Below, in pieces: positions 27,501 through 49,392 of a stretch of 64,000 nucleotides of DNA. The notes below the pieces were generated by a model. That model ran no database searches. It saw only the letters and a program-made list of their open reading frames with translations, and was not told the origin of the DNA. The translations under genes and the position numbers were made by a program. Within the stretch, counting starts at the first letter, position 1. Each line of letters begins with the position of its first letter. The stretch is from a virus (lineage: Duplodnaviria > Caudoviricetes), in IMG/VR virus record IMGVR_UViG_3300028833_000075, positions 32,001 to 96,000 of that record. The stretch is one strand, 5' to 3'.

Positions 27501-30405
27501 GCTTCGCAAGCTCTTCAAGGTTCTCCATCGACTTTGTATAGAGCCGCTGTTCGTCTCCCTGGACGAAGCTTGAATCCTGCCATTTATTTTCTTTGAGAAT
27601 TTCTCCAAGAGTGTCTGTTAGCAAAGCATCTTCCTCTTTAATTCTGGCTTGTGCTTCTTTTAAAGCCGGAAGACATTCACCGTATACTTTATCAGATAAT
27701 TCTGCAAACTTTCTTGTCAGTTCGTTGATGCCATTAAGATCGCTTTCTGTATCAGGAATAAAACTATTTAATACTTGATACATCTTATCGTTTAAATATA
27801 TTTTTGAAGCATATCCCTGAACACGAAAGTAATGTGAAGATAACGGTTCGTTTTGACATACAATACGTACGTGGCGTGTTTTTGCAGGCGTCTGAACTAC
27901 TCCTGCGCCGCCAACAGCTTGAGAAGAAATAAATCTGGAGTTAATGTCATAAAATACACACAAACTGTTATTTGGTAAAGAATACTCATATGGAGTTGAT
28001 TCATACACAATAAGATTGCTGCTGCGGACCATAGAAGACGAATCGATTTCGACGCCATTAAACGGATCGACTGAACCGTTTGTAAAACCTCGGAGTTCAT
28101 TCTCGGCTGGATATGTTACAGCATCGAATGGATATACGGAAGCCGTGACGATGTTTGCCACGTTATCTCCGTTTTGATATACGTATCCTGTTGTGCTTTC
28201 GAGTTTCAATGTATTGGTTGCACGATCTGTTGTAAACGTCCAGTAAAACGCAAACTCATTCGGTATTGCGTAGTTGCCTGCATTTAAGTTCGCAGAACTT
28301 ACATAATGTTCATAAAGCCCTTTGTATAGCATATCCCGTCTGCGGCAATAATAGAAAACTTTTGTAAACATGGCCGCAAGCCGTTGTTCAACAACAGATT
28401 CATATTTTACCCATTTTCCAGACTCTCTGTGATGAAGTGTTCTGTATTTTGTATTGTAAAAATACTGACCATTGGAAGCATTGTTCGGAGCCTCGTTAGC
28501 AACATATGCAATTTGCCATGTTCTGTCTCCTCTGGCACCCCAACAGAAATATAATGTGCCGGGTTCGTAAAGCGTTTCCGAATACTTGTAATACCATCCA
28601 TAACTGGAATGGATCGCAGTTGTATCGGGCTGGAGTTCTGTTGTGGAACCGAAATAAACAGGATGCTTTTCAGTCACCTCTGTTGTTTGTGTTTCAAGGT
28701 TTTCGAGAACTGCTTCATCTTCAACCTGTTTAGCACCAAGCATACCGGACATACTGTTTGTACAGAAAAGATACACCCTGTCTGTATTGGTGTATCCCCA
28801 TCCTTCAGCGTTTATACGAATTGCAGAAGGATAGTCATCTTGTATATTGTAAGAATAATACGTTGGCTCTCCATCCAGTCCGACATACAATGTGTTGTTT
28901 GAGTCGTATATTCCCGTTACGTATGCTTTATCCCATGTTCCGTCCTGATGGACTACGTAAATAACACTTCCGATTCCATCGAAAGGATCTCCATTTGTTT
29001 TAAACTTTTTTGCTACATGCCATTGAAAATAATCCTTCTCAGCCGAATCGTAATCAGATCTGTATATAATACCGTCTGGTGTCTCTGGCGTATTGTTCAG
29101 GTATATCTTAGTGTATCCATTATCTGTACCGTATCGAAGTACGTTAAGTTTGGCGAACCCGGTATTGGATTCTCCGACTTGGCTTAATTCCCATTCGTAT
29201 GCCGCAAGATCACTTGCTGCCTTTTCGCTGATGTCGTAATACACGGACATAGATCGCTGGAATTTAGCGACTTCTTGAAACATATCGTCGGTTAACAAGC
29301 CTACTTCATTGTAATAATTGAAGTCCATCAAATAAGGGAATTTATTGACAACAGATTTCTTTGTCCCGCTGATATGAGAGAACGAACCATCTGGTTCTTT
29401 AACAACTTTATAAGCCTTTTGAGTGTTGTCATTCCAAACATAACTCCGACTTGCAAAATCAAGTTTAGACCATATTAATTTCTGACCTGCTATAAGAGTT
29501 TCTGTAGGAGAAAAATAGTAATAAGCGCCTGTATCATCCTGAAATTCCAGCCATGATCCGGCAGGGGAGGCAGGAGCGGTAAATTCGTACTCGTCATGCT
29601 CGCACGTTTGGATACTGCAATAACCTGTGACTTCGCTTCCGTAAGCACCGTAGCAGTATAAACGGGTAATCATATTCTCCGTGTTGACTGTTTTCTCGAA
29701 GTTCTTGATATTCCTGTCGTAATGAAGTTCTATAACATTGCGGCCGTCCATAACTTCCTGAGGAACTGTACCCGCATCTGTCTTTGAGAACGGATTCATG
29801 CTGACGATGTCAATGGTTCTGTTCCCGCCGTGATATACAGGCGATGCTTCAAATAATTCACAAAGCTGCTGAATCAGACTGAGAGCTCCGGCCCCGGCAG
29901 ATGAAGACATGCTTCGCTTCTTAATGCTTCCATCTTCTTCAGTGAAAACCTCTACATATCCTCGTGTCCATCCGGTTCCTTCCAGAATAGTGTCGAGTAA
30001 AGCGTCTGCTGTTCCAACGTTGTTTCCTTCTTCATCGGAGAATTCAAGATCGATAGCTTTGTTTTTTAAGTTAGATGAAATATGGGGGGCACGAACATCA
30101 ACATCTTCCGAGAAATGATTGTGGACAATCCTCGGCTCGGATATGATGAAATAATCCACCTCGTCATCATCGATTGTCCGCAGGCGGTATTCCGCCTTTA
30201 AGAACGAAAGCCTGTAGTTTTTTTCGATGCCTTCCCCCGTATTGTAAACAGAAGGTACGCTAAAAGTGAGCTCCTTATTTCCGTTCCGTTCTGTAATAAC
30301 AAATACATCGTGCGCACATCCGGATACTTTATTATGATTGTCGTACAGATTGCATAATACGGTATTTGAATAGTCGCATATGTCTAACCGTAAAATTCGC
30401 TTCAC
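24592..30405 (-). CDS. Tail tip/Tal-type minor structural protein (baseplate hub plus spike)
   Basis: 1937 aa directly after Dit; N-terminal LTFSVP..ILEGTGW..ITRLY pattern and GLTADVITTGYMSADRI beta-repeat region. Confidence 0.8.
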   Translation of the reverse strand: MKRILRLDICDYSNTVLCNLYDNHNKVSGCAHDVFVITERNGNKELTFSVPSVYNTGEGIEKNYRLSFLKAEYRLRTIDDDEVDYFIISEPRIVHNHFSEDVDVRAPHISSNLKNKAIDLEFSDEEGNNVGTADALLDTILEGTGWTRGYVEVFTEEDGSIKKRSMSSSAGAGALSLIQQLCELFEASPVYHGGNRTIDIVSMNPFSKTDAGTVPQEVMDGRNVIELHYDRNIKNFEKTVNTENMITRLYCYGAYGSEVTGYCSIQTCEHDEYEFTAPASPAGSWLEFQDDTGAYYYFSPTETLIAGQKLIWSKLDFASRSYVWNDNTQKAYKVVKEPDGSFSHISGTKKSVVNKFPYLMDFNYYNEVGLLTDDMFQEVAKFQRSMSVYYDISEKAASDLAAYEWELSQVGESNTGFAKLNVLRYGTDNGYTKIYLNNTPETPDGIIYRSDYDSAEKDYFQWHVAKKFKTNGDPFDGIGSVIYVVHQDGTWDKAYVTGIYDSNNTLYVGLDGEPTYYSYNIQDDYPSAIRINAEGWGYTNTDRVYLFCTNSMSGMLGAKQVEDEAVLENLETQTTEVTEKHPVYFGSTTELQPDTTAIHSSYGWYYKYSETLYEPGTLYFCWGARGDRTWQIAYVANEAPNNASNGQYFYNTKYRTLHHRESGKWVKYESVVEQRLAAMFTKVFYYCRRRDMLYKGLYEHYVSSANLNAGNYAIPNEFAFYWTFTTDRATNTLKLESTTGYVYQNGDNVANIVTASVYPFDAVTYPAENELRGFTNGSVDPFNGVEIDSSSMVRSSNLIVYESTPYEYSLPNNSLCVFYDINSRFISSQAVGGAGVVQTPAKTRHVRIVCQNEPLSSHYFRVQGYASKIYLNDKMYQVLNSFIPDTESDLNGINELTRKFAELSDKVYGECLPALKEAQARIKEEDALLTDTLGEILKENKWQDSSFVQGDEQRLYTKSMENLEELAKPEITYTFDFLDLYGSNHDIHYYENNDVEWPDIKITDAAHLVDPELKESVWAYIDRINKCYDQEWRTTLDINTKLSLVGQHEFTDVLTRIAEVAKDIKGKQNIYDRAAMLNSGSIPSDKLEGTIQLNQTVLKGGASNYYTDPNGNIIFESADGLSAMILGGRGLGISNQKTEDGDWLYRSALTGTGLTADVITTGYMSADRIEAGSITTDKLSSNVGQELEISSNKALLLYATVNGSRPAGTVKTTDAIIEIKAGNETDKAQVNVISGGELNMTGGDINISSQGKLDLQSSGEFHLRSNGADNINSTADGLYMGSDGVNFGGGKFKVVFSGNSSAVIAKSQSIFFGDLTYINNGQTYNYPIESVLSGAALKVDSINGNVDLLANNTINIGAGKTLTLLSGGNVLIGNSGSPFTIGSNGTVAYIYNGKTTLSDTTHNGAYYGTDGLIVGKVGGNYVKATADGTVDITGTIHTGDGDIAGWAISSATLKGNKTGLAKTNSDTAIAIWAGTTDPDATNTPFYVRQDGYVKMSNLNVSGGTINVNNNFIVASDGSATINKGSITIGSNFSVSPTGVLKATSGEFSGKITAEEGTIGDWNIRTGKLDSSSGTTYVALDSSTTLYPKSGTTTPVDTMYAFWCGANAPNSAPFSVTKDGVVTISQLRVNIGTAVSPNYQVVDMNKWFSSDDPEDFDVTVAMGKLKFQTVKSIKVDSVTGKVTINLTTSGGGTRGVSFDSAVSLSGAWDGTTYSISAITGTIKGTIPTTSIYQDIVGTPNPSKTIYANIYHDSPSSENLINTTEMTLKENVSSKTVTLSSNTFVKGSISTAATYNAGHTEGYNDGYGDASGRVSLKTNAYSIDYDETYRLTVPVRGYDGSTLVNSTRTIVFSGPPAVADVTVSSIARSGDTITATLSNGNTGTLTLESHTNCASGLTRYNNGNQIALYYTDSSGRYVSAGNRYWYYRSSAQSLHTYYT

Positions 30406-30420
30406 CTTTAGTCACCACCT

Positions 30421-31503
30421 TTATGCGAATGTCGGTTTGAAATAGAATGACAGTTTATCTAAACTGATAGATGTAACGGGAACCACTTCGAGTTGATTCA
30501 TACTCATAATTGTGGTTCTGAAAGGTTTCGTAATTGCGCTGATGCCGTCTACTGTTAACGTATGAATATCCGGCTGATCCGTGATTTTACGCCAGCCGTT
30601 AACATAAATATATTTGTCGATATAATCTTCTTCCAGTTTATTTGATACGGTAATATTGTTTCCGCTGTTACCTGTGACATAGATTTTTCTATTGGCAGGA
30701 TAGTCAGGAGCAAGTTCAATAAAACCATAATCGTGATAAAGGAACGCAAGAGAAGCATCACTGCCGTCTTCAAGGGATAATATTGTTTTGCCGCTGATGC
30801 CATCCACGGTAACGACTTTATTTACGTTTGTCGTTTTTGCTTTCGACATAGCAACAAGTTTCATTTCTTGATCGGTTGTTTTGTTTCTGATGATAACACC
30901 TGCTCCGACATCTCCGGCAGCGATAACAGTTAAAGCTGCCCTTTCCGTTCCAGGGTTGCCAAGCGTAAACGAAAATGTATTAGGTTTAGTAAGATTGATA
31001 TTCGTGAACGCTTGATCAGGAGCCATGCCGTCAGTGTCGTACAGGGCTGAGTTTTCCATTATGTTTTCGTGATTCGGTGTTAACCGAAGGCTATACAAAT
31101 CATCACATCTTGCAAAAGGGTAATATGCTTTCATTGTTATTTTGATAATTCCGTTCAGATAGTTGGATAATTCGTGATCATCGTATTCGGTTACGGTTGC
31201 ATAATAATAACACCATGGCCGCCGCTTAAATATCAGTTTTCCGGATTTTCCAACTTTAAACAGATGTTGAATTTTTGTAAATAAGCCTTTGTCAATTACA
31301 GTTTCTTCGAAAAAACACCGCAAGATAAACTGTTTAGGATCTCTGGATGCTCCGTAAAAATATCCACCGTTATGTCCGTCGAACGTCTCTTCGTAAACTT
31401 TTGTAGTTGCAGAACCGTATACATATGTATCTTCCAGTTCAGGAGCATACTCAAGGCCGACGTCCTGAATGTCTACGCCGCAAAAAGAAAACCCACCTTT
31501 CAC
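30421..31503 (-). CDS. Distal tail protein (Dit)
   Basis: 360 aa immediately after the TMP; GFSFCG start, GKLIF..PWCYY..MKAYYPFA motifs; synteny. Confidence 0.8.
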   Translation of the reverse strand: MKGGFSFCGVDIQDVGLEYAPELEDTYVYGSATTKVYEETFDGHNGGYFYGASRDPKQFILRCFFEETVIDKGLFTKIQHLFKVGKSGKLIFKRRPWCYYYATVTEYDDHELSNYLNGIIKITMKAYYPFARCDDLYSLRLTPNHENIMENSALYDTDGMAPDQAFTNINLTKPNTFSFTLGNPGTERAALTVIAAGDVGAGVIIRNKTTDQEMKLVAMSKAKTTNVNKVVTVDGISGKTILSLEDGSDASLAFLYHDYGFIELAPDYPANRKIYVTGNSGNNITVSNKLEEDYIDKYIYVNGWRKITDQPDIHTLTVDGISAITKPFRTTIMSMNQLEVVPVTSISLDKLSFYFKPTFA

Positions 31504-37600: not shown

Positions 37601-40600
37601 TGGTTGAAGTGCAGTTCTTTCTTCTTGCGTTAATACAGGTCTATCAGTTTTTTCAACAGCTTCATTATATTGACTCTGAATTTTATCACGTTGTTCAGTA
37701 GCCTCTGTTTGTTTTGTCTCTGCAACATTTCTGGTGCGTAAAATTCCTTCATTGTCTTTGTAAACCTCAGTCTTGTCTGCAGGTATGTTTTGAGCTTGAC
37801 GAACGGCTTCTTCGGCGTCTTCAAGTTCTTTCTTTAATTGATTAACACCTGCGGCTTCATATGCCTTTTCCTTTTCAGCTTCAGAATGATACGCGCCTTG
37901 ATTTAATTTTGTTAAAGCTGATCTTGCAATATTAGCTTGCGTTTTTTGTTCAACGTATCCGGTATTATTATATAATCCGGATCTATTAAGAACTCTTCTT
38001 AATTGCGCTATACCATCAGGAGCGTTAAAAGTTCCTGTTTCTTCATCGTATGTACCTACAATTGAATTAAAAACTTCCTGAAAATCAGGATTGTTCATAG
38101 CTAAAGATTGCAAAGCCGTATATGCTTCACTGTTTGTGTTGGCAAAATTCATAAAATCAGTAATATTATCATAATTATCAAGTTGAGATATAATGAAATC
38201 AGCGCTAACAGCAGCTTCATTTTTCTCTTCCCATCCTTTTGGCTGAGAATAAAATTGATTTAATCCTAAGATTCTATTGGGTACAAGCTCATAATCATTT
38301 TTTATTTTTTCTGCTTCTTGGTTAATCTCATCTGCTGCGTCTTTAATGATCTTACCTCCGGCATCAATATAATTTGAAATTGCTAACGTAAGATCTTCAG
38401 GGGCTGCATTTTGAATTTTTTCAAAATTCGGATCGTTCACATCAAATATTTCACTATAATCTACACCTCGAGAAAGATAATCATTAATGACGTCGGTTGC
38501 CATTTTGTTATATCTGCTTTTGTATTCAGCTTGAGCTTGCTCGGGTGTGATACGTTCACCGTTTTTATTATAGTATGATCCACGAGACACCTGATCTAAC
38601 CTGGCTAAACCTTGAGTTTCTGCGCCCTCTAAGTAATCGTTTTCAACTTGCGCCACAAATGAATCGTAATTAAACCCATCAGCTAAACCATAGTGACGAA
38701 CCACGAATTCATCAAGCGTTTCATTTTCTCCTCGTAAAGAGTCTAAATACGATCCAGACATTTTTATTTTATTTGTAACTTCTTCGGGTAAGAGACCTTC
38801 GGTAGATGCTGCAATAATATCACCAATAATAGAACCAGTATCTGCAACATAATGTGCCTCTCCGGGTAAATCACCTTGTTGCGTCGAAAGCCAAGTACCA
38901 TATGCTTGTGATAAAACTCCCAGGTTATATAAAGATATGCTGTTAAGTAATTCCTCATCTTTTGGATCGGACACACCCAAATAGTGGCTTCTGTCATTAT
39001 CAAAATCAATATAATTTCGGTAATAAGTACGAATACCACTTAAAGCATTTTCCATTTCCTCTGTAAATTGTCCGGCATCTTTATATGTTGTTTCAAGATA
39101 ATCTAAAAATCCATCTTCCCAAGTAGTATTTCCATAATAAGAGAACATTTCTCCTAAGTTTATTACTTTATCTCTTTTTGAGCCTTCTCCATTAAAGACA
39201 TCAAGAAAAGTACTTTTAACTTCACCGTTTTCAATGCGGAAATAATTTTGCAATTCTGGAGTTATCTCTTCGTTTCCGTTTTCATTGGTTTCATATAAAA
39301 CAAGAGTGCGTGCAGATTTCTCTGTTTTAGTCGTAAGCTCATCGTTTAACGTTCCGCTTACAAGGTTATCTTTTATGGCTTTCGCTTTTATCTCTTTTTC
39401 TTTTTGCTCTTCTCTGTCTTTAAGATCTTGATAATATTTATCGAGATTATCAGATGAGGTTGTCGATATTTCGCCTAAAAGAGCAATACTGCTTGAAAGA
39501 TCTTTTAATCCGCCGCTGGAATCAGAAATAGATTGTTGAAGCTCATCACTTATTCCGACGTCGACCGCGAAAGATTTTAGGATCTTTCTATATTCATTTA
39601 TCTCATCCTCAGTTTTTGAATTACCCTTTTCGTACAAGACTTTAGCTCTGTCTAAACTGCTTTGTTTGCTGTTTTTACTAAATTCTTTGGCTGTATCTTC
39701 GGTTACTTTTGCATATGTTTTCTTTTCAGATGCAAAAGAAGATGAAGATGAAGGAGATTGAACATTTTGTAAATAAGCTCCTGCTGCAGCTCCAGTCGCA
39801 GCGCCGACAAGAGCGCCAACCCATCCGAATTGTGCACCTTTAATCGCGCCAATTAATCCTAGAATAACCGGGGCTAATAGTTTCATCTGAGACAACCATC
39901 CGACAATCTGACCAAGTCCAGTGATTATATTCGCAATACTTTCAGCAAGAACTTCAAATTGGCCGGTGTCGACCATTTTGTTGACCATTTCATCCCAAGC
40001 TGTACGAACTGTATCGATAGACGCCTGAAGACTATGCATCCGAATTTCATTCTTTTCATCAACAATACCTTCGGATTTTCCAGACAGTTGCATATACTCG
40101 TCGACTTTTCCTTCAGACATTCCCATCATAATCGCTGAGAAGTTTGAATACTGACGAGTGCCTGCAATTGCATTTGCAATTTGTTGCTGCTCGGCATCTG
40201 TCATGCCTTCCCATTTTTGAGACAATGCGTACAATGTGTCGTATGTGGATTTTTTATTACCTTGCTGATCATACATTTCGATGCCTTGTTGCTTAAGTAA
40301 TTTAGCAACAGCAGAGCCCGAAACAGCATTACCATTTTCGTCATAAATAAGTTCGTTTGTACCGATCTTATTCATGCGACCGATAATAGTATTTAATGTA
40401 CGACCTGCAGTATTACCGCCGATCTGGGTTGTAGAAGTAATAGCAGTAAGCATTGAAGCAAGTTCTGCAAAAGTGGTTCCATCTGCAGCCGCTGCAGCAC
40501 CAGCCTTTTCGATACCTTTTTCAATTTCTGATGCATTGGTAGCAGCGCTATCGCCTAAAGAAGTAACAATATCTGCTGCTTGACTTGGATCGGTTACCAA

Positions 40601-43600
40601 TCCGGTATTCATAGCAACAGTAATCAATTTAGTTGCGGCGTTTACATCAGTGCCGGAAACTTTAGAGAACTTGGTAATAACATCCAGTCGTTCATCAACT
40701 TCTTCGTCGCTTAAGCCTTGACGATAAAGAGTTTCGGCAGATTTTGTTATCTCGCCAATAGAAACTTTTAACTCTTTTGCTTTTGCGATTAATCCGTCTC
40801 CCAATGTTGACATTTGCGAATCAGATTTTAAGGTAATCATCTGAATCGATGTCATAGACTTGTCGAATTCTTGAACAAAGCGTTTTGCTTCATTAATCGC
40901 TTTCATAAAAATCTGGCGACCAAGTCTTTGCATGACGCGAGATAATCCAGTATTAATTTTACTGAGTCCCGCAGACATAATAGACGATGCGCCGCCAAAC
41001 TTATTCATCTCGTTAGTTGTATCTTGTATTGCGCTTTTATAACCTGCGATCTTTGTTTCAGATTCTTTAATCTGTCCAGCTAATTGTGCTCCTTCTTTAC
41101 TTTTTTGCTGTTCAGGTGAGAGTTTATTAAAATCTTCACGATAGCGCTGAAGTTTTTCTTCTTCCGCTGTTTTATTTAGATTAAGGGACGCTATCTGCTG
41201 TCCGAGACTAAACCTTTGATCTGCATCGCTTCTAAGTTTGTTGATCAACATAGAGCCGGGTTGACCATATCTATTTCTCCGCCTAACGGCAGCAGCATGT
41301 TCTCTTTGCTGATGAGCAAGATCGTTTTGCGTTTCCATGCGACCAATTTGTTGGTTTTGTATATCAATCGCTCGATTTTGATTAAACATCATGTTTTCGG
41401 CGATTTCATCTTTTCTTCCTGCCCAATCACCATTATAGTATCCATTTAATCTATCATACATATCCTGCATGAATGGCTGTTCAAACGTTCCATCTGGCTG
41501 TTTATATTGCTCTAAAGCCTTCATTTGATTGAATACTTCGAGCCGTTCCTGATCTGCTTGAAGCTGAGCGCCGATTTGCATACGTGCAGTAGGTGTTTCT
41601 ATTTTTGTGAGAGCTTGTTCAATTTCAGATTTTCCAATCTCGGAAACACTTTCTTGCACAGCAGATGAAATAGGTTGAGCATCTGGAGTCTCAGCGGAAG
41701 CTGGAATTTCTGTTCTTACTTGGTCTGCGGTTGCCTGAATAGCCTGTCTTGTACCTTCTGTGATAGCTTCCCCGATTTTTCCTGCATTAGTTGATTGAGG
41801 AACTGGTATTTGTACAGGAGGAATATTCTCTGCAGCCGCAAGACTTGCATCTCTCTCTTTACTTGCAGCAGCCATTCCTTGTTCGTATGTGCTTAATATA
41901 TTTGAACGTTCTGTAGCAAGAGTCTCTTGCTGTTTAGTTAAATCTGCAACTCTTTGTTCTGCGTCTTGAATCTTTTGAGCTCTGTCTCCAGATTGGGATT
42001 TATATGCATCTTCTAATTTTCTTTCAGCAGCAGCTTTTTGGACTTCAATCGCTTCGCGCTGCTCTTGGTTTTTAGCAAGGACCGCGTCTCTGTCCTTTTC
42101 TACATCGTTTATTTCCTTGTTGATTGCGGCTGTTTGTTCTTTTGCAATTATTTCTTTGTTTTCTTTTATCTGAGTATTATATTTATTATTTGCTTCATCG
42201 TTTGCTTTATCTCGATCTTTTTCTGCTTTCTGTAGAGATTCTTTAATCCTTGTTTCTTCTTCTTCTGTAGATTTTATGTTTGTGTCATGTATTTTGCGGA
42301 TGTTTTCTTTTTGCCTTTCAAAATTTTCCGTTCTGTCTGGACTTGAATATTCAGATTTTATTGTTCGTTCCTTTTCGTACAAAGAACTTTCTCTTTTTTC
42401 GTATCTCTCTTTTTCTTCTTCATATGCCTTAGTTTTTAATTCGTTTTCAGTTTCTATTCTTTGTCTGTATTTTTCATCTGCATATGCTATATCCTTACCG
42501 TGATCTCTATTTGCGGCTTCTATTCTCCTTTGTTTTTCATATTTATCGTAACCTGTATAATCATCATTTTCTATTCTAGCAAGTTTTTCTTCGAGAGATA
42601 AATCGGCAGCAGTATAAGCTTTTTCTCTTCGTTCTTTATATGTTTCTAACGCATTATTATAATTATCTTCGATTTGTTTCTCGTTTTCTATATTTTTTCT
42701 ATCATTATCTTTCCGTTGAGCTTCAATGTCAGCTAAAGCATCATTTAATCCCTTTGTTTCTTCGCTTTCTATCATTGATAAAGCTTGTTGTTTCGACGAT
42801 TCTTCTTGAGCTTTATAATTATTTATTTCAGTTAATCTATCTTTTAATGGTTTAATTGTTTCTTCGTATTTTGCATTGTTTTCTGCAATAGATTTATCTC
42901 TTATCGCTTCAGCTTTTTTATTGGCTTGTTCAAGCTCTGGGCTAGTTTCTGCCTTTTCTTTTTCTTTAATCCCGTTGAGTTTCTTTTGTGCATTTTCTTT
43001 AATTTCTTGATCAGATTGTTGTAAAGCTTTGAGTTGATCATCAAATGTTGTCGGCAACGTCCCTTTTTCAGCAGCAGGTAAAGCTCTAAGCTCATCTAAA
43101 CTTTTCTGCGCAGCGGCAAGATTCGTTGCAACTTCAGCCTCTTTTGGAGTAAGCTCACTAAGCTGGGAATCCCTGCTTGCTTGAAGTGCTGCAGCTTTTG
43201 CGTCGTATGAAGTTTGAGCTTTTGCTTTTGCTTCTTGGATAGACACTTGCCTGTCTGCTTCAGCTTTTTCTTGAGCTGCTTTAGCTTCTTCAGCTCTCTT
43301 TTGTTCCGCCTCTAAAGCGGCCTGTCGTTCTGCTTCGGCTTTTTCTTGAGCGATTCTGGCTTCTTCAGCTTTTCTTTGTTCTTCTTCCAGTCTCTGTTGT
43401 TCAGCAAGACGTGCTTGTTCTTCTTCCTGTAAACGTTCTTCTTCTGTTTTCTGCGGAGGAAGTTGTTGAGAGGGAAGGGGAGTAGTAGCAGGAACGCCAA
43501 GAGCTTTAGATGTGCTAAGACGATCGATAAGTGCCTGTGCGTTCATCGCGACTTTAGACCTTGAAACTAAACTTTCTTGTTTTAATTCTGTTCTATAATC

Positions 43601-46600
43601 TTCTTCGGTTGCTGAATTAAGCATTTCAGTTAATCGGTTGTAGTCATCTTCTTTTATAATGTCGTTTTGATGCAGATTTTCTAATGAGGTTAAAATCTGT
43701 TCTCTCTGTTGATTGAAGGCGGCAACTCTTAAAGATATTTTTTGATCAATTGGCGCATTTTTTCCCATTGAGGATACGAGAATTTTTTCAACATCCATTT
43801 GCATGGATTTTGTTGCATCTTCAGAAAGTATTTTCTCATAACTTTCTTTCATCTCTTCGCTTGCTTGAAGTTGTTGCTCAGCTTCTTTTAATGCCTTTTC
43901 GTCTTCTGGTGTTTTATTTTCTTTGTTATACAAAAGATTGTATGCAGCTTGCGCACGTTCAAAATCTTCATCAATTGATTTTCGTTCATTTAAAATACGT
44001 TTAGCACTGCTTGTTGTATTATGTGTATATATTTTCTCAGCAATGCTTTCGGAAAAGTTTGCAAGATCTCCTGTCGCTCCAGCTCGAAGTGTTTTTTCAA
44101 ACTGTTCGCGGCCTGTGTTAAAACTAGTTTGAAATAGTGCAATTTCATCAGGCGAAGCATTACGGTTGCGCATCCTTGTTGTAACATCCATATATCCTTC
44201 AGGAGAATACATATATGCATAATTATCCCACTGAGACCTGCTTGGTCTTGTTTTATCATATCCTAACTCTCTTGAACGAAGTTTGTTTTGTATCGCCTCG
44301 TAACGTTCAATTTGCTCATCAATGTAATTTCTATTGGAAAATGCGCTTGTTAATTCTCCGGTATTTTGTACTCCTACATTAACCCCGTTCGGTATTGGTG
44401 CACCGGCTGCAGTAGCGGCCTGTGTGATAAACTCCGAAGACAACGGGCCACCAGAAGGCATTTGACGAACAGATCCACGGACAACATTTGGAAGTAAATA
44501 AGGATCGAAATATCCATTAAGAATTTCTCCTAATATGTCTTTTTTCCCAGCCAAAGGTATTATTGCACTGCTAATTTTTGCCATTCGGTCTTCAACCGAT
44601 GAAACGAGTTCTGGTGTTACTTCTATTGATTGAGTTTCCAATTTTCCGCCTTTATAAGAAATAATTCCAGCTCTTTGTGCGCCATTGGCACCTGCATAAA
44701 CAACAGGCTGATCAAATTTGTGGACGCCGATCAACGAAGAGTCGTGATCGAATCCATTCTTTAAGTCCCAGTTCGTTCGAACACCATTTGCATCTTCCGA
44801 AACAACATCGACATAGCCAATGGTTTTTAATCGATTTCCGTTTTGGTCCGTTCCAAAATTTGGATGCACAACTCCGCCATTCTTTTCCGTTCCTACAATC
44901 TTTTGGTCTCTAAGTAAATTCGGGAATTGCTTTGCCGCTTCAACAATTTCTTTATACCGTGTTTTTACTTTTTCGTCATACAAAGGACTATCTTCTGTTG
45001 GAAGTTCAGGGAATAATTTCTGACGAGTATCTGGATCCTGCCAATTCTTCAGATAATTATTTACATAATCGACCATTTCTTCAGGAGTTCCATAATCCTC
45101 ATTATTCTCCATTCTTCTTTTTGCCCAATATGATTGAGTTTCATGAAGAGCTGTACCGAGTAATTGAATAGGTGTTGTAGGTTTTTGCTCGTTTTCTATA
45201 TATTTTTTATACCAATTAAGCGGACCTGCTGTTTCTTTTTCTATAGAATGAAGCTGCGACCATGAAAAATTCCTGCTAAGTAAATTTTGAATTTGTTCCG
45301 ATGTGACTGCTTTTTCAGCGCTTGCTTTTTGTGCAGCCAACAAAGCTTCATCTCCGCCTGAAATAGCGTTCATTCTTGCTTTAATTGCATCTTGTTCTGC
45401 ATTAAAACTTTGATCAAATAAGCTTGTTTCTCCTGTAACTCTACCTTTAGCTAAGCCAGAAAACGGAATAAATCCTTCTCCTCTTAATTTTGCTTGTTCT
45501 GTTAATCCAAATTCTTTTAAATGACGCATCCGTCCGCGTTGAAATTGCACATCATGTAATTGATCCATCCAAGAATTTATTTTATCTTTATTTCCGGGTT
45601 CTGTTATTTTTGTTTTTTGAAGTTCCGTATTAACAAGCGTTTCCCAATTTGCCAGATAACCAAGCATTTCATCTTCGTCTTTTTGAGACACAAACTGAGC
45701 GCGGTTTGATACAAATTGAGCCATTACTTCATTGTTTTTTCTTAAATATTTTGCTTTGGCTAAATCTACAGGGTTTTCAGAGTTTTCTAAATTTTTTATT
45801 CCTTGTAAGTGTTCTTGCATTTGGATGAATTGATTAATAATATTATCGCTATAAGGATTATCCATACCTGCAGCAATAGCACTTGTCGTTAAATTCGAAT
45901 ATCTTGATGGGAAGTTGACTTGAGAAAAATCTTTAACCTTTGAAAAATCTCCTTCTTCTATAGCTCCTTGCAGGTTTTTAAACATACGAACATAAGGAGT
46001 TCCCATTTTTCTGGCTTGATTTGCAGAATGTGACCATTTTGCAAGAATTCCTGTCTTAGCAAAAGTTGTGTCGATATCATACATTGCCCGAAGATCAACG
46101 CCTGCTTGTTGTGCAAAGCGAGCCCACTCCGGATCACTCCAATTTCCCTGGGCTAAAGCATCGTTAGCGTTAGAGACGGCCGCCATATCGAAAACAGAAG
46201 CAGCTTTTCTATATAGAATGTCGGCATAATCAGAAGCTTGTACTTTTCTGGCTTTTCCGTTTTCTGTAAGTGGGATATCGTCGTCACTTTTAACGGACGT
46301 ATTTAGTTTTTCAATATTTTTTCCTCTTGATTCATACGTGCGCTTTACGGTTTCGGCTAACTTTTTTCTAACAGCTTGAATTGTATCTCCGTCAACATCT
46401 CCACCGCCCATCTTTTTTATCGTATTCATGTTGACTATCATTGCATCTCGGCTCATTTGATATTTATCAAGCGCATCAATATACTCTTTTGAATTAAGTA
46501 ATTCAAACTGTTCTCCGAGATTATTAGGATATCTCCATCCGCCAAGTTCAAGTGTATCTGCCCATGAAGCTAAAGCGACTGCATCTGCGTCGCCTTTTCC

Positions 46601-49324
46601 TTTCAAACTCAACGCGTTAGCAAGATGTGTATTTTTAGGTCGTAATTTTACTTTTTGCTTGCCCGCAATCGCAGAAATTAATTCAAAAGGATTGTTTAAT
46701 GCTAACGCATTTATAGCGTCGCCTTTTGAATATAAACGTTGATTACGTCTATCGTCCATAGCTTTTAAAATTGCATCATCTACTCGCTTTCTAGCTTCCG
46801 GATCTGAAAAAAACAAACTTTTATCTTTTTGAACTCTTTGAGCGAGCGGATCGTCCGGGTTTGAGAACAACATATCTATTGTTTTGGCCGGATTTGTTCT
46901 AAGTGTTTGGATGTATTCATTCCATTTTTTGTTATTGCTTTCGATTTCTTCCGGCGTCAAATCTAAGTTTTGCGTCACTTGTCTTGAAATAGAATCAGTT
47001 TTACTTAAAAACCCTTTATCTGTTTCTACTCCATACATTCCGCCAACCATATCCAAAACATCAAAAAATCTATCTTGAATTGCAGAATGTCCTAAGTTTT
47101 TATAAAAAGGAGTTTTATTCATTGAAACATCAATAGCAGCTTGATATTTCAACAAATCAACAAAATCCTCATCAAATGTTTTTAATCCATTGCTTTTATA
47201 AGCGTTTCTTACTGCTTCAATCCCTTTTTTGTTATACAGCTCCTTCATTTCTTTTGGTGCGTTCCATGCAGGAACCATAAATTCATCAATGTCGCCATAT
47301 ACATCTCGAATCATTTTTTGAAAATCCACCTGCATGGCAGAACCTTTAAATCCTGCAGAACGAACGGTCATTGCTTTAGCTGGAAGATAACCCGGCATAA
47401 CCATCATTCCACCGTCAAATCCGGTGATTGAATTAAAATCGACAAATGCGGTATCATTCTTCGCTGGCATTTTGCCGCCCAAAGAACTAAATGGGACAGC
47501 TGGAGTATGTAAACGATTTCTTGCGTCAATTGGTTTATTTAAGTCTTTTACTGTAATAAATTCTTCATCATCACTAACAAGATTCTTAAAAATATCAACG
47601 CCATATTTATCAATAAATTGACTTGCTTTTTCGATATAGGCGGATTCTTCCGCTAAATCTATTATTCCGTTTTTATGAATTCCGGTTGGAACATATGTTC
47701 CATGTTCACCATGATTTATTGTCGGATATGAGAATGTGTTTCCACCTGGCGTTTGAATCGTTTTGCTGTTTTTCTCACTGAACAACTCTGTGACAAAAGC
47801 CATAGTTTCAGCATTTGGTTTTACTCTTCCGTTCTCGAAAACAAGATCGCCGTTTTGATTTTTTTCAAATAAACGATCTGTTAAATCAAGTTGAAGCATT
47901 TTACGTGGACCTGAATCAGAACCAAATGAGTTATGCCCAGACATACCTAATAAATTTGTATATATCGAAGAAGAAATCATTCGGTTAACAGATTTGCCTG
48001 CTGCTCTATCGTTATATGCAAATTCACGTCCTGCTTTATCGTCAAGGATTACGCCATTTTTCAAGTCATCTAATGTTAAAGACATGATTTGGAAATAATC
48101 TGGACGAACAGATACAGGCGAATCTACAGCTACTGAATTATCTATTGACCTGCCATATTTTCTTGGTTTATCAACGTACAAAGGCTGATAAATTGGAATT
48201 TTTTCAAGATCTCTTAATGCGCCATATACTTCTGTTACTGTTCTTGATGTTTTTCCCGCCATTGCAATTTGTTCATGGTCGTCAGAATTCAATAACGAAT
48301 GTCGATGCATCGGTGCCCCTTCTAGAGCAGGCCGAAGAATGTCTCTGTCCAAAAACCCTAACGCTGTCGCATACTCACTTTCTTTTATAGGTGTTTTTGG
48401 CATTATAAGTTGACCAGCTTTATTGTCAATTGTTCCTCTTCGAGCAACGCCAGCCATTAACAGAGCGTTTTCTAATGCAGGATATTTGCCTGCTGCATTT
48501 TTTAAGATATCATAATCTTCTTCAGACATATTTCCAGCATACGCCTTACGTCTCGATCCAACAGAATAAGGAACTGAAGTAGGCACATCTGGAAAATTGC
48601 GATACTTTTCTGGCATTCTTTCTTTATACGTGGAATACTCAGGAAGAATAGAAAGTCTTTTTATTGTTCCTTTTGATTTATCAATTGCCGATTGATAAAA
48701 ATCTTCTCTTGCAAAAGAAGGCGTTACCATATTGATAACACCTTGAAGTAATTCAGATACCTGGTCGTCGGAAAATCCAAATTGTCCTGCAATTGCGTCC
48801 ATACCTTTTTTAAAAGGTGCGTGAGATTTTAGTATTGATTCGTAAGCGCTATTTGTTTGTGGCCCCATAGACCTATAAGTTCTTGTAATAACATCGGAAG
48901 CTGCCCTCGAAATATCTGCAAATTCAGATTCAAACCCTTTTGTCATAGACTTTGGGATTGATGTAAACATTTTCCCAAAGTTACCAGAAGTAGAAAATAA
49001 AGTTTCAACGCTTGAAGATAAAAACGCAATACCCTGCTTTAATCCTGAAATCATATCAGAACTAATCGAACTGCCTAAGCCCAAATCTTTCATTGTTGAA
49101 ACAAGTGCATCCCGCTGCTGTTTTATTGTAGAAAGCATGGAATCAACAAAAGAAGACATCATAGCAGGAGCATCTTCCGGTAAAAACGATTTTTTATCTA
49201 TGTTTGCTAAAGAAAATGATTCATCTAATGATTCAAGTTGTGTTTTACATGAATTTAATTCTCCAGCATCAATTGGATTAAGTTTAGGATTAATTTCAAT
49301 TTCAATTGCCATAAATTTACACAT
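31634..49324 (-). CDS. Giant multidomain tape measure protein with N-terminal two-barrel RNA polymerase-like and PD-(D/E)xK nuclease-like domains
   Basis: 5896 aa between the tail chaperones and Dit. TP901-type core (EFDKSMTSIQMIT..LYRQGL..AGRTLNTII..IAGTRQ) at ~40000-40900, hydrophobic G/A-rich segment ~39775-39880, C-terminal FKEGGYVDYTGPAWVDG..PEAFL motif. The start may be ATG 49312. Confidence 0.9.
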   Translation of the reverse strand: MCKFMAIEIEINPKLNPIDAGELNSCKTQLESLDESFSLANIDKKSFLPEDAPAMMSSFVDSMLSTIKQQRDALVSTMKDLGLGSSISSDMISGLKQGIAFLSSSVETLFSTSGNFGKMFTSIPKSMTKGFESEFADISRAASDVITRTYRSMGPQTNSAYESILKSHAPFKKGMDAIAGQFGFSDDQVSELLQGVINMVTPSFAREDFYQSAIDKSKGTIKRLSILPEYSTYKERMPEKYRNFPDVPTSVPYSVGSRRKAYAGNMSEEDYDILKNAAGKYPALENALLMAGVARRGTIDNKAGQLIMPKTPIKESEYATALGFLDRDILRPALEGAPMHRHSLLNSDDHEQIAMAGKTSRTVTEVYGALRDLEKIPIYQPLYVDKPRKYGRSIDNSVAVDSPVSVRPDYFQIMSLTLDDLKNGVILDDKAGREFAYNDRAAGKSVNRMISSSIYTNLLGMSGHNSFGSDSGPRKMLQLDLTDRLFEKNQNGDLVFENGRVKPNAETMAFVTELFSEKNSKTIQTPGGNTFSYPTINHGEHGTYVPTGIHKNGIIDLAEESAYIEKASQFIDKYGVDIFKNLVSDDEEFITVKDLNKPIDARNRLHTPAVPFSSLGGKMPAKNDTAFVDFNSITGFDGGMMVMPGYLPAKAMTVRSAGFKGSAMQVDFQKMIRDVYGDIDEFMVPAWNAPKEMKELYNKKGIEAVRNAYKSNGLKTFDEDFVDLLKYQAAIDVSMNKTPFYKNLGHSAIQDRFFDVLDMVGGMYGVETDKGFLSKTDSISRQVTQNLDLTPEEIESNNKKWNEYIQTLRTNPAKTIDMLFSNPDDPLAQRVQKDKSLFFSDPEARKRVDDAILKAMDDRRNQRLYSKGDAINALALNNPFELISAIAGKQKVKLRPKNTHLANALSLKGKGDADAVALASWADTLELGGWRYPNNLGEQFELLNSKEYIDALDKYQMSRDAMIVNMNTIKKMGGGDVDGDTIQAVRKKLAETVKRTYESRGKNIEKLNTSVKSDDDIPLTENGKARKVQASDYADILYRKAASVFDMAAVSNANDALAQGNWSDPEWARFAQQAGVDLRAMYDIDTTFAKTGILAKWSHSANQARKMGTPYVRMFKNLQGAIEEGDFSKVKDFSQVNFPSRYSNLTTSAIAAGMDNPYSDNIINQFIQMQEHLQGIKNLENSENPVDLAKAKYLRKNNEVMAQFVSNRAQFVSQKDEDEMLGYLANWETLVNTELQKTKITEPGNKDKINSWMDQLHDVQFQRGRMRHLKEFGLTEQAKLRGEGFIPFSGLAKGRVTGETSLFDQSFNAEQDAIKARMNAISGGDEALLAAQKASAEKAVTSEQIQNLLSRNFSWSQLHSIEKETAGPLNWYKKYIENEQKPTTPIQLLGTALHETQSYWAKRRMENNEDYGTPEEMVDYVNNYLKNWQDPDTRQKLFPELPTEDSPLYDEKVKTRYKEIVEAAKQFPNLLRDQKIVGTEKNGGVVHPNFGTDQNGNRLKTIGYVDVVSEDANGVRTNWDLKNGFDHDSSLIGVHKFDQPVVYAGANGAQRAGIISYKGGKLETQSIEVTPELVSSVEDRMAKISSAIIPLAGKKDILGEILNGYFDPYLLPNVVRGSVRQMPSGGPLSSEFITQAATAAGAPIPNGVNVGVQNTGELTSAFSNRNYIDEQIERYEAIQNKLRSRELGYDKTRPSRSQWDNYAYMYSPEGYMDVTTRMRNRNASPDEIALFQTSFNTGREQFEKTLRAGATGDLANFSESIAEKIYTHNTTSSAKRILNERKSIDEDFERAQAAYNLLYNKENKTPEDEKALKEAEQQLQASEEMKESYEKILSEDATKSMQMDVEKILVSSMGKNAPIDQKISLRVAAFNQQREQILTSLENLHQNDIIKEDDYNRLTEMLNSATEEDYRTELKQESLVSRSKVAMNAQALIDRLSTSKALGVPATTPLPSQQLPPQKTEEERLQEEEQARLAEQQRLEEEQRKAEEARIAQEKAEAERQAALEAEQKRAEEAKAAQEKAEADRQVSIQEAKAKAQTSYDAKAAALQASRDSQLSELTPKEAEVATNLAAAQKSLDELRALPAAEKGTLPTTFDDQLKALQQSDQEIKENAQKKLNGIKEKEKAETSPELEQANKKAEAIRDKSIAENNAKYEETIKPLKDRLTEINNYKAQEESSKQQALSMIESEETKGLNDALADIEAQRKDNDRKNIENEKQIEDNYNNALETYKERREKAYTAADLSLEEKLARIENDDYTGYDKYEKQRRIEAANRDHGKDIAYADEKYRQRIETENELKTKAYEEEKERYEKRESSLYEKERTIKSEYSSPDRTENFERQKENIRKIHDTNIKSTEEEETRIKESLQKAEKDRDKANDEANNKYNTQIKENKEIIAKEQTAAINKEINDVEKDRDAVLAKNQEQREAIEVQKAAAERKLEDAYKSQSGDRAQKIQDAEQRVADLTKQQETLATERSNILSTYEQGMAAASKERDASLAAAENIPPVQIPVPQSTNAGKIGEAITEGTRQAIQATADQVRTEIPASAETPDAQPISSAVQESVSEIGKSEIEQALTKIETPTARMQIGAQLQADQERLEVFNQMKALEQYKQPDGTFEQPFMQDMYDRLNGYYNGDWAGRKDEIAENMMFNQNRAIDIQNQQIGRMETQNDLAHQQREHAAAVRRRNRYGQPGSMLINKLRSDADQRFSLGQQIASLNLNKTAEEEKLQRYREDFNKLSPEQQKSKEGAQLAGQIKESETKIAGYKSAIQDTTNEMNKFGGASSIMSAGLSKINTGLSRVMQRLGRQIFMKAINEAKRFVQEFDKSMTSIQMITLKSDSQMSTLGDGLIAKAKELKVSIGEITKSAETLYRQGLSDEEVDERLDVITKFSKVSGTDVNAATKLITVAMNTGLVTDPSQAADIVTSLGDSAATNASEIEKGIEKAGAAAAADGTTFAELASMLTAITSTTQIGGNTAGRTLNTIIGRMNKIGTNELIYDENGNAVSGSAVAKLLKQQGIEMYDQQGNKKSTYDTLYALSQKWEGMTDAEQQQIANAIAGTRQYSNFSAIMMGMSEGKVDEYMQLSGKSEGIVDEKNEIRMHSLQASIDTVRTAWDEMVNKMVDTGQFEVLAESIANIITGLGQIVGWLSQMKLLAPVILGLIGAIKGAQFGWVGALVGAATGAAAGAYLQNVQSPSSSSSFASEKKTYAKVTEDTAKEFSKNSKQSSLDRAKVLYEKGNSKTEDEINEYRKILKSFAVDVGISDELQQSISDSSGGLKDLSSSIALLGEISTTSSDNLDKYYQDLKDREEQKEKEIKAKAIKDNLVSGTLNDELTTKTEKSARTLVLYETNENGNEEITPELQNYFRIENGEVKSTFLDVFNGEGSKRDKVINLGEMFSYYGNTTWEDGFLDYLETTYKDAGQFTEEMENALSGIRTYYRNYIDFDNDRSHYLGVSDPKDEELLNSISLYNLGVLSQAYGTWLSTQQGDLPGEAHYVADTGSIIGDIIAASTEGLLPEEVTNKIKMSGSYLDSLRGENETLDEFVVRHYGLADGFNYDSFVAQVENDYLEGAETQGLARLDQVSRGSYYNKNGERITPEQAQAEYKSRYNKMATDVINDYLSRGVDYSEIFDVNDPNFEKIQNAAPEDLTLAISNYIDAGGKIIKDAADEINQEAEKIKNDYELVPNRILGLNQFYSQPKGWEEKNEAAVSADFIISQLDNYDNITDFMNFANTNSEAYTALQSLAMNNPDFQEVFNSIVGTYDEETGTFNAPDGIAQLRRVLNRSGLYNNTGYVEQKTQANIARSALTKLNQGAYHSEAEKEKAYEAAGVNQLKKELEDAEEAVRQAQNIPADKTEVYKDNEGILRTRNVAETKQTEATEQRDKIQSQYNEAVEKTDRPVLTQEERTALQPIIGNELLDKIGRYENGDESLINRLITNYGNGINGLTNRDKLAGIKELSGYIQDNKLVGYSKESAKKYLEGFSGAPELLALLTSEEPLTSDQEELLSTLLQQFNNYKNNLEISIEVEGLKALEETGDLLAGTAASVEKLRKGGKIALDEILNIQNNAFATKQQYSQFKNGSTQAEKDEAAMSILGMDSTQFYSNYEANMELAENMADQQRKALGEQLWTQYTNANWSDRNRIQKIARNLGFGLNLRQWTDIGVPDQDWINPATGQKLGYTDLQKASYARKLIRGDASVLEGGANFDKELYNAAYESLGFYGKEYQNRLNSTDAAVRASAAEYKTLAEAEARQAEIDAEEQERLNRAKLGATSFAGALNYANVRYEQNNKAGIAANNLFAQLDGQKVDNVRKLMDVLGQGNADDWKNLLESSDDVRKVFEDLGVAIGENGKLDFSGVTASGEQLDAQFRILAESVANASEAYKKIQEVLTTGESYDRAQEYLKGEGIEEKGFEALSQVTGNQQLAQAVRNARVRYDEQLEEYNAFQRLTFAEQNQYALQHEGVVPQNPGVFDWASELTDQDKEYAKIIMQNLENGGIGLTDYDRYEKLDEILNSQDRNLRGFYKDDTIGAYKDYTQGIEGADMWLAASMALEEYGLKMEDLANLEPGDLFNKAAEAVETYYGSVENAILADKDFKDGLIELKNKAFRPYKKETDEVISRFKQLRGSTKDQLEAQKQMAANRDAFAKATYFKENYGTSKVSNKSLAEYLGWTEEQVKANPLKAKAQLDLEFEADQQAIINDVNAVIESIESEVGDIPIEDFGPHFNINGTYDIGQLEAVAAEATGEAKRVINAIIASLAGTEGSVTFGAFGNGNSVRIASSNIRSAGGGYKGGGGGGGGKSKVDALLEGQQHYVKRREHFVNMSQKAETHYERMNDYQSYINSLNDEMNAQQALYSQYEANMAEMEKMKETVKEGSEDWYKLQESIDSTREAMAGITDTIDEINGKKINITETKQGYEDKPLSHATSMLQLKAQNYMDRGQFESYAVVTRQQIANYRTDIAMNNAQMAEWEDLIKEYEEGSQNWMNVRDKIWEIKEQNAELENKVLEDTHALNEAIVSQIATDLQNAMAPVTHEQNMLSTWGGMYQRNEQFGAYRSTLAQNNDYYQLNVAMYQTAIAELQAQMATLEEGSQAWYNARDAVFEYEEAIATATSSVQENNEAIQESYITELVNSYAQAEDAIAHQINMAKTTAERYDNDNDFANYQNMIREEMNLTNESLDLSRRKLADMEELLNGGALEEGGTQWKDLNKQIFELRETINSTEGAYENLVRQLEQDQLEHIIERFNERDEVAQHNIKMIQFEETRYQNNGELTNQNTMLTRENEEQEKRADLIREQIALLKEQQEVTKPGSENYKKITSEIMKMEEQLESTNQTIDKNTESIKKNVEQIHKIQQTLEQTVDKEIKDRIRLQREMLAGTVNIQDSILAQIRKRYTDEWNLIKKDIERKKQALNEEKNLINERLNARKNAADQEEKYERLAELQRQLGLISADPTRTKEAKELRKQITDLQKELSWDIATKEAEMATQAIDDQINAYSDYTAIYEENLGEMLEDARNFKDEMDVIMNGSFEDYVNYMREHDENYKNATDETRLQMEQGWEDTWKKMKGLTDTYWEEIDVTMASKDTFLEYMKQSQQYLNGSETDRWLLENQWSEMYDNYTKSTIDNASFDHNHEVVDAIDQLKDYTYDVRIADRSYSLGMYSSSLDYMYFRDKSIDPDAVNYDPNDQYSSVTGSYASLYDSYQKQLAKNEEYKIPQIIINAGGGGGGGGSSSNTSTDQSKYYEVYDDRGFRTNYVIKASSPNEAKAKASSSLGKHYSSGGSYYSTKPTWATKIFKEGGYVDYTGPAWVDGTKQKPEAFLNSYDTESLRLMLDSFNYIRTMPLTTFDQIPLGSNEPMISIGDVNVNLYEAKLENDADYDVIAQKVGKAFTKQLSKNGFNLAAYTM
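44600..45280 (-). other. PD-(D/E)xK (RecB/Cas4-like) nuclease domain within TMP
   Basis: FSWSQL (S1354), GTALH (1390-1394), E1480, GYVD (D1506), DLK (1520-1522), QPVVYA (Q1539); numbering from 49324. Confidence 0.75.
45950..47500 (-). other. Double-psi beta-barrel (YonO/QDE-1-like) RNA polymerase domain within TMP
   Basis: FDGG (D637), RSAGFKG (655-661), SMNK (734-737), RYP (931-933), GGGDVDGD (D976-D980, nt 46385-46399), AVSNA (N1052), FAKTG (1088-1092). Confidence 0.8.
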
Positions 49325-49338
49325 CCTTTCTTATATAT

Positions 49339-49367
49339 TTGACATTTGCTTATATTATTGGTAACAT
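49339..49367 (+). promoter_or_regulatory. sigmaA-type promoter for the plus-strand zinc-ribbon gene
   Basis: TTGACA (49339-44), 17-bp spacer, extended -10 TG-n-TAACAT (hexamer 49362-67), then AGGAGG RBS and ATG 49393. Confidence 0.6.
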
Positions 49368-49392
49368 GTATAAAAAACAGGAGGTTAACATT

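Follow-up and report, generated by a model that had tools for sequence, protein, structure and literature searches.

Can a phage tail deliver a nuclease along with the DNA it ejects, and if so, on what would the enzyme act? The question is raised by a 64,000-nucleotide stretch of a tailed-phage genome (Duplodnaviria; Caudoviricetes), positions 32,001 to 96,000 of IMG/VR virus record IMGVR_UViG_3300028833_000075 and hereafter called the window. Here a giant tape-measure protein (TMP) appears to carry a nuclease domain right behind an RNA-polymerase-like module. Proteins ejected together with phage DNA shape the first seconds of infection. To our knowledge, very few ejected enzymes are known, namely the virion RNA polymerases of N4 and crAss-like phages, the TMP-polymerase of phage P23-45, and TMP peptidases. 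If true, a TMP nuclease beside a polymerase would add a second type to the nucleic-acid enzymes that enter with phage DNA. It would also bear on how a duplex genome is first transcribed by single-subunit two-barrel polymerases, given their preference for single-stranded templates.

The largest feature of the window is an open reading frame on the minus strand (31634–49324), with a stop-free translation of 5,896 residues. Pfam PhageMin_Tail (PF10145) matches residues ~2850–3055 in two adjacent pieces (E = 1.9e-15 and 2e-6), and genes for the distal tail protein (Dit) and a Tal-like minor tail protein lie behind it. Because of this core and these neighbors, we call the reading frame a siphovirus TMP, and it is a real one. 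In homologous loci, Sipho_tail occupies the Dit position as well, and the syntenic counterparts of the Tal-like gene carry YOMG_N/Prophage_tail.

Residues ~1341–1603 of this TMP almost certainly form a PD-(D/E)xK nuclease domain of the RecB/AddB/Cas4 clade. The initial annotation, made from the sequence alone, had picked out the motif series of such nucleases, and every string is indeed found at the residue given for it: FSWSQL at 1353, WYKKYI at 1371, GTALHE at 1390, E1480 (in VGTEKN), GYVD at 1503–1506, WDLK at 1519–1522 and QPVVYA at 1539. The span it assigned to the domain, 44600–45280, corresponds to residues ~1349–1575 and lies inside the domain; the boundaries need slight extension, as the folded domain is somewhat larger (44516–45304). 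The cysteines that hold the iron–sulfur (Fe-S) cluster of Cas4 were correctly reported as absent, with zero cysteines in the TMP domain and in nine homologous domains. Since all 10 of the 10 domains examined are Cys-free, an Fe-S cluster of the Cas4/AddB type is absent throughout the lineage.

Relatives of the domain are few. Searched exhaustively with phmmer, a set of 1.84 billion representative proteins yielded 15 matches, 10 of which are giant proteins (4,069–5,641 residues) that match at the same position (residues ~1330–1640). Four others are short. In the alignment, P0007 differs very little from P0008; it and P0011 are probably pieces of giant proteins and are not counted as stand-alone forms. 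P0010, a repeat protein matched through many short stretches, is spurious and was discarded. A word-indexed search for stand-alone relatives of 154–758 residues found none. Locus scans added a single relative from IMG/VR (L011) and came back empty for 185,579 species genomes. The collinear TMP homologues (3,602–5,641 residues) come from independent assemblies. Overall, about a dozen clusters of the TMP lineage were found among the 1.84 billion representative proteins, all of them metagenomic; being rare and known only from metagenomes, it has probably escaped notice so far.

To assess conservation, we used an alignment (A1) of 12 domain sequences, including nine giant homologues for which DNA was fetched, with 21–70% identity to the window domain. 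Eleven residues are invariant: S1354, W1371, G1390, P1488, G1503, D1506, D1520, K1522, Q1539, Y1543 and Y1557. H1394 and E1480 are retained in at least 90% of the sequences. In P0012, P0018 and P0019, which were held out of the profile, every catalytic residue is retained. Variation in the D..DxK residues among homologues would have spoken against a nuclease; these residues are instead invariant down to ~21% identity, held-out sequences included, and the G..H, E and QxxxY elements are invariant or nearly so. The TMP domain has the full conserved set of metal-binding and catalytic residues (H1394, E1480, D1506, D1520-x-K1522 and Q1539-xxx-Y1543), and on this sequence pattern it is predicted to be active.

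Profile searches point to the same family. The domain's own sequence matches the PHROG family phrog_69, annotated 'exonuclease', with E = 2.8e-9. When the 12 aligned domains were scanned singly, nine matched Pfam PDDEXK_1 (PF12705; best E = 3e-15). The fragment P0007 scores 51.2 bits against a cut-off of 22. Homologue P0019 (3,602 residues), retrieved only via the polymerase-like region, bears precomputed matches to both PF12705 and PF10145. A tblastn search of the TMP domain against 50,697 phage records found nothing. When PDB sequences were searched, either by profile from the nuclease alignment or with the L007 domain as a single sequence, only chance matches appeared.

The same phage also encodes, outside the window, a stand-alone Cas4-like PDDEXK_1 nuclease of 273 residues (G000:143142–143963, plus strand; L012:1468–2289). 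This protein matches PDDEXK_1 at 63.5 bits and contains the quartet of Fe-S cysteines that Cas4-like enzymes typically have. In hhalign, A1 aligns with it over 173 columns (Prob 98%, E = 1.5e-13), and the motifs fall in register (273-residue nuclease/TMP domain): YSYSQL/FSWSQL, GSLIH/GTALH, the strand-1 Glu, FVD/YVD, D-H-K/D-L-K and QQYLY/QPVVY. The first cysteine position of this canonical paralogue (E-C-P) is aligned to G-P in the TMP domain. On this alignment, the 273-residue nuclease and the TMP domain are distant paralogues.

The initial annotation had named the lack of a restriction-endonuclease-like fold as grounds for refutation. Prediction gives such a fold at high confidence, and the best structural matches are without exception nucleases of this kind. 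The AlphaFold model built from the 12-row alignment has a predicted local distance difference test (pLDDT) score of 91.8 and a predicted template-modeling (pTM) score of 0.88. AlphaFold from the single sequence reached a pLDDT of only 36.5. In model numbering, strands lie at residues 136–140, 168–171, 177–183 and 212–217, and a helix at 194–208. E1480 immediately follows strand 1 and D1506 immediately precedes strand 2; D1520-x-K1522 is part of strand 3, and Q1539-xxx-Y1543 is in the helix that follows.

Foldseek searches of the PDB gave ACE1, an Argonaute-associated member of the Cas4 family (E = 2.4e-6), and also returned AdnA, AddB, Cas4 SSO0001, MGME1, RecE, Dna2 and lambda exonuclease. 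Re-scoring with VIA-align placed the AddB nuclease domain first (Z = 12.8, 248/281 residues aligned) and AdnA next (Z = 12.5, 224/281), and the top 49 entries are all nucleases of the RecB/AddB/Cas4 clade. Matches in BFVD are stand-alone phage PD-(D/E)XK, RecB or Cas4 exonucleases of ~190–610 residues. Among ESM Atlas neighbors (template-modeling scores 0.66–0.69), PDDEXK_1 is present in 93–100% of members in eight of nine rows, the ninth being a UvrD-helicase cluster. The signals from phrog_69, hhalign, Foldseek and VIA-align are far beyond chance, and we rejected a chance motif match. A mobile insertion, such as an intein or homing endonuclease, was likewise rejected because every collinear homologue has the domain at the same place.

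The RNA-polymerase-like module (residues 556–1336) directly precedes the nuclease. Its DVDGD motif is at TMP residue 976; across 10 homologues neither GGGD-x-DGD nor R-x-P varies, and DxDGD is also present in P0012, P0018 and P0019. The pairing of the two domains, which the initial annotation had proposed to follow across homologues, holds in 12 of 12 distinct giant homologues, with the DxDGD module ~380 residues upstream of the nuclease. Pfam RdRP (PF05183, QDE-1 family) matches weakly in three of 10 members (best E = 0.0029) and is the only family matched by more than one member; in a feature-based search, an RdRP-bearing cluster ranked second (0.88). Sequence and profile searches of the module against the PDB gave no match, and hhalign detected no similarity to residues 327–1124 of gp96, the TMP of P23-45 (Prob 1.9%).

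A second DVDGD protein of the same phage, 1,110 residues long, is encoded outside the window (G000:C1:99592–102924, plus strand; locus L014:593–3925). Its match to Pfam RdRP (QDE-1 family) is borderline (E = 3.7e-5; 23.0 bits versus a cut-off of 23.8). The gene is the first large one of the plus-strand arm, which diverges from the structural arm, and by analogy with P23-45 gp64 its product is a candidate non-virion RNA polymerase. Between this protein and the TMP module, hhalign aligned 76 columns around the motif only (E = 0.0076, Prob 5%). No copy of it turned up in G001, a related IMG/VR record.

How far does the conserved part of the TMP extend? BLASTP of the whole protein against six homologues returned a single collinear conserved block that starts near residue 5–75. 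The block reaches ~1917 in the closer relatives and P0012, and it stops at ~1522–1563, within or just past the nuclease core, in P0005, P0008 and P0016. The nuclease thus closes a conserved N-terminal enzymatic module. On the evidence of these alignments, a rare giant-TMP lineage has kept this N-terminal block, the DxDGD polymerase-like module together with the nuclease, conserved and collinear.

In two distant homologous contigs, the place directly upstream of the nuclease-bearing TMP, in which one would expect tail chaperone genes, is taken by a very large UvrD-type helicase gene (L015:4247–9874 and L007:1–1927, both plus strand). The L015 helicase has 1,875 residues and tandem (two) helicase modules, with no PDDEXK domain. 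No UvrD helicase is encoded in the phage studied here. On L015, a 254-kb contig, an MqsA-antitoxin-like gene and two SocA/Panacea-domain genes are found just upstream of the helicase–TMP pair (L015:2124–3874, plus strand).

Comparison with known systems indicates what is familiar in this arrangement and what is not. The best structural matches, the nuclease domains of AddB and AdnA (PDB 4cei_B and 9np6_A), align over nearly the whole domain and share the RecB-family motif set. However, identity is only 11–16%. The AddB nuclease carries an Fe-S cluster, whereas the TMP domain is Cys-free and lacks this 'staple'. Moreover, AddAB and AdnAB nucleases are fused to a UvrD-type motor, while the TMP domain is embedded in a virion protein, a UvrD-type gene adjoining it only in the two distant homologues. 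The Cas4 family (SSO0001, 4ic1; type I-C Cas4, 8d3l; ACE1, 9iac/9iab) resembles the domain in fold and motifs, with Z scores of 10–11 and the Foldseek match to ACE1 given above, and Cas_Cas4 is annotated in 11–59% of members of the ESM Atlas neighbors. Yet all four Fe-S cysteines are missing, and no CRISPR or Argonaute context is present: the domain sits inside a tail gene flanked by tail genes, likewise in all homologous loci. For these reasons the domain, although Cas4-like in fold, is not a Cas4. Stand-alone phage exonucleases of the PD-(D/E)XK/RecB family (phrog_69 and the 273-residue protein) are homologous to it, by the PHROG match and by hhalign respectively. These are proteins of 250–400 residues, here encoded in the non-structural arm with four cysteines in the phage's own copy, whereas the TMP domain is Cys-free and internal to a structural protein of 5,896 residues.

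A functional precedent is gp96 of Thermus phage P23-45, an experimentally established TMP-fused virion RNA polymerase (PMC10770324), which its authors propose to act at the TMP pore during DNA entry. Both proteins are giant siphovirus TMPs (gp96 has 5,002 residues) with an N-terminal DxDGD module, DFDGD in gp96. The second, separate DVDGD protein encoded here, of 1,110 residues, is analogous to the non-virion RNA polymerase gp64 of P23-45. The paper on gp96 describes metallopeptidase and membrane domains and mentions no nuclease (PMC10770324). In keeping with this, hhalign of A1 against gp96 residues 1101–2000 gave a Prob of 0.09%, and gp96 has no PDDEXK match in Pfam. Its sole Pfam match is Peptidase_M23, and M23 is missing from the TMP studied here. 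The principle is the same, in that a TMP brings a catalytic domain into the envelope or cell, but the gp96 domain is a peptidase rather than a nuclease. In the literature searched, we found no description of a nuclease domain in a tape-measure protein. Within a very well-known superfamily, the domain is thus a new member, divergent and Cys-less; what is new in architecture is its position inside a TMP and its pairing there with a polymerase-like module.

What might the nuclease do at infection? The initial annotation had suggested a cargo that enters with the genome and might serve end processing or circularization, template opening or attack on host DNA. In lambda and T5 tails, the TMP N-terminus is oriented toward the head, so that it is the last part to exit and immediately precedes the DNA. 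The structural relatives of the domain need a DNA end, being exonucleases or enzymes that thread a single strand. Taken together, these two points suggest the leading genome end as the substrate. In the mechanism we envisage, the N-terminal block would exit the tail with the TMP and arrive in the cytoplasm just ahead of the DNA. There, an end-dependent nuclease would act on the sole free DNA end at hand, that is, the leading end of the phage's own genome. One strand would be resected 5'-to-3', leaving a 3' single-stranded tail. This tail could serve as template for the adjacent single-subunit two-barrel polymerase, which would read it inward, co-directionally with DNA entry; host RecBCD/AddAB, too, would act poorly on such a tail.

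The template-making step is proposed because single-stranded DNA is a good template for single-subunit two-barrel polymerases and native duplex a poor one. The crAss-like virion RNA polymerase gp66 transcribes DNA that is single-stranded or denatured, not native double-stranded DNA, and QDE-1 requires single-stranded DNA plus helicase (10.1101/2020.03.07.982082). By analogy, the template preference of gp66 and QDE-1, the P23-45 precedent and the presence of a separate four-Cys Cas4-like nuclease in the genome suggest a dedicated entry-stage role for the TMP domain. The UvrD-type helicase upstream of the TMP in two distant loci fits a theme of unwinding and resection. Similarly, the P23-45 enzyme is thermophilic, uses AT-rich promoters and has no nuclease, which fits the template-making model.

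Our confidence differs among the parts of this proposal. Action of the nuclease on the incoming phage end is, in our judgment, evenly poised between true and false. Resection of that leading end by a TMP-delivered nuclease is the explanation we favor overall, by analogy with the systems above, at slightly short of even chances. That the nuclease makes template for the fused polymerase is a tentative suggestion, clearly less likely than not. Of much the same low likelihood is the idea that the N-terminal ~1,600 residues are a self-contained 'resect-and-transcribe' entry machine in which strand removal replaces promoter melting. If this were true, it would explain why a nuclease (or adjoining UvrD helicase) is found in mesophilic TMP-polymerases and none in thermophilic P23-45, with its AT-rich promoters and ~65–70 °C.

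Several observations weigh against this proposal or the assignments beneath it. A PDDEXK_1 profile, which the initial annotation had offered as a check, recognizes homologous domains, as described above, but the window's own domain has no match in Pfam (E ≤ 1), nor in NCBIfam or PDB sequences. The upstream module is a putative polymerase, judged by invariant motifs and weak RdRP matches. Further, gp96 works without a nuclease domain, so TMP-fused polymerases do not as a rule require one, and the transit of a ~30-kDa folded domain through the tail tube may be in question. The ends of the genome also bear on the matter. The source record (150,578 bp) is rated complete, and its 'direct terminal repeat' is an exact 127-bp overlap (G000:C1:1–127 and 150452–150578). 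Because its length resembles an assembler k-mer overlap, the repeat looks like the sign of a closed assembly and not like a physical terminal repeat.

If the ejected nuclease does not make template, it might process genome ends for recombination: resected redundant ends would anneal, and circularize or concatemerize the genome, or would deter RecBCD/AddAB, before phage gene expression. The structural relatives include the resection enzymes AddB, AdnA, RecE and lambda exonuclease, the self-closing assembly is compatible with terminal redundancy or circular permutation, and a UvrD-like helicase adjoins the TMP in the two distant homologues. Against this, the phage already has its stand-alone Cas4-like recombination nuclease, no annealing-protein domain was detected beside the TMP nuclease, and the strict pairing with the DxDGD module would be left unexplained. 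Annealing also requires both ends in the cell, whereas the TMP N-terminus meets the leading end only. We regard this role as unlikely. The need for ends is an obstacle to an offensive cargo that would degrade the host chromosome, plasmids, competing phage DNA or defense nucleic acids, for immediate takeover or counter-defense: the closest relatives (AddB, AdnA, Cas4, MGME1, Dna2 and RecE) need DNA ends, and host replicons are circular. A virion contains only a few TMP copies, so that those delivered would be few and tethered, and nothing would spare the phage's own DNA. The invariant catalytic residues do imply selection for activity, delivery ahead of any gene expression suits an immediate-early attack, and flexible linkers plus a long coiled coil part the domain from the TMP core, making reach or cleavage possible. 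Nevertheless, we consider an offensive role quite improbable.

Two further alternatives seem to us to have only a very slight chance of being correct. One is that the domain acts on RNA, trimming or cleaving transcripts of the adjacent polymerase or attacking host RNA, as do PD-(D/E)xK enzymes of the DXO/Rai1 type. The polymerase-like module is immediately adjacent and Foldseek did list the decapping nuclease DXO1, but at rank 40 and far more weakly (E = 0.053) than the strong matches, which are all DNA nucleases; the RecB-type QxxxY motif is, moreover, present and invariant. The other, of similarly low probability, is a non-catalytic structural or DNA-end-binding remnant that would, for example, hold the DNA end in the tail or aid tail assembly. 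Loss of the Fe-S cluster could mean decay, but RecE, MGME1, lambda exonuclease and RecB are active relatives that likewise lack such clusters. There is precedent for exaptation of a Cas4-like fold as a structural virion protein in TTV1 TP1 (PMC4625639). All catalytic residues of the TMP domain are, however, invariant at only ~21–30% identity, which is unexpected for an inactive remnant, and it is this invariant active site that makes a remnant unlikely. Resection of the leading genome end thus remains the reading we prefer, at the strength given above.

Table 1. Features of the TMP and its neighbors, in window coordinates
Feature	Position	Strand	Basis
TMP gene, 5,896 residues	31634..49324	−	One stop-free frame; PhageMin_Tail core; collinear homologues
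RNA-polymerase-like module, residues 556–1336, directly upstream of nuclease	45317..47659	−	DVDGD at 46385–46399; conserved motifs, weak RdRP matches
Cys-less RecB/AddB/Cas4-type PD-(D/E)xK nuclease domain (predicted), residues ~1341–1603	44516..45304	−	AlphaFold model, structural matches, phrog_69
S1354-x-S1356, N-terminal motif	45257..45265	−	S1354 invariant, S1356 in at least 90% of 12 aligned sequences
G1390-xxx-H1394, helix motif	45143..45157	−	G1390 invariant, H1394 in at least 90%
E1480, acidic residue just past core strand 1	44885..44887	−	In at least 90% of aligned sequences; retained in held-out sequences
G1503-xx-D1506, motif II 'PD' aspartate	44807..44818	−	G and D invariant in 12/12 and in held-out P0012, P0018, P0019
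D1520-x-K1522, (D/E)xK motif III, core strand 3	44759..44767	−	Invariant, aligned and held-out
Q1539-xxx-Y1543, RecB-family motif, next helix	44696..44710	−	Invariant, aligned and held-out
Tape-measure core (PhageMin_Tail), residues ~2850–3055	40160..40777	−	Pfam PF10145
Distal tail protein (Dit) gene, directly downstream of TMP	30421..31503	−	phrog_33, E = 7.8e-15
Tal-like minor tail protein gene	24592..30405	−	phrog_6211 minor tail protein, E = 4e-24

C-terminal of the nuclease, the TMP continues with a Gly/Pro/Ala-rich linker, an E/K/A/Q-rich stretch of ~740 residues and the tape-measure core, and it ends in a long C-terminal part. Residues 1–555, 1601–1950 and 1951–2650 gave no match to a known family. 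The E/K/A/Q-rich low-complexity stretch (residues ~1917–2650; window ~41375–43574, minus strand) has no counterpart in the closest homologue, P0002: the BLASTP alignment skips from residue 1917 to 2658 in the TMP and only from 1919 to 1922 in P0002. This stretch makes up most of the length excess over P0002 (5,896 versus 4,991 residues).

Immediately upstream of the TMP start, on the opposite strand, is an open reading frame of 132 residues (49339–49737, plus strand) with a weak match to a PHROG of unknown function; locus L002 has an opposite-strand gene of 111 residues at the same spot. Among the tail genes upstream of the TMP are two paralogous GIY-YIG-type homing endonuclease genes (52295–52978 and 53743–54459, both minus strand), which match phrog_314 with E = 2.6e-38 and 1.2e-39. 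L002 also has a GIY-YIG/NUMOD3 gene.

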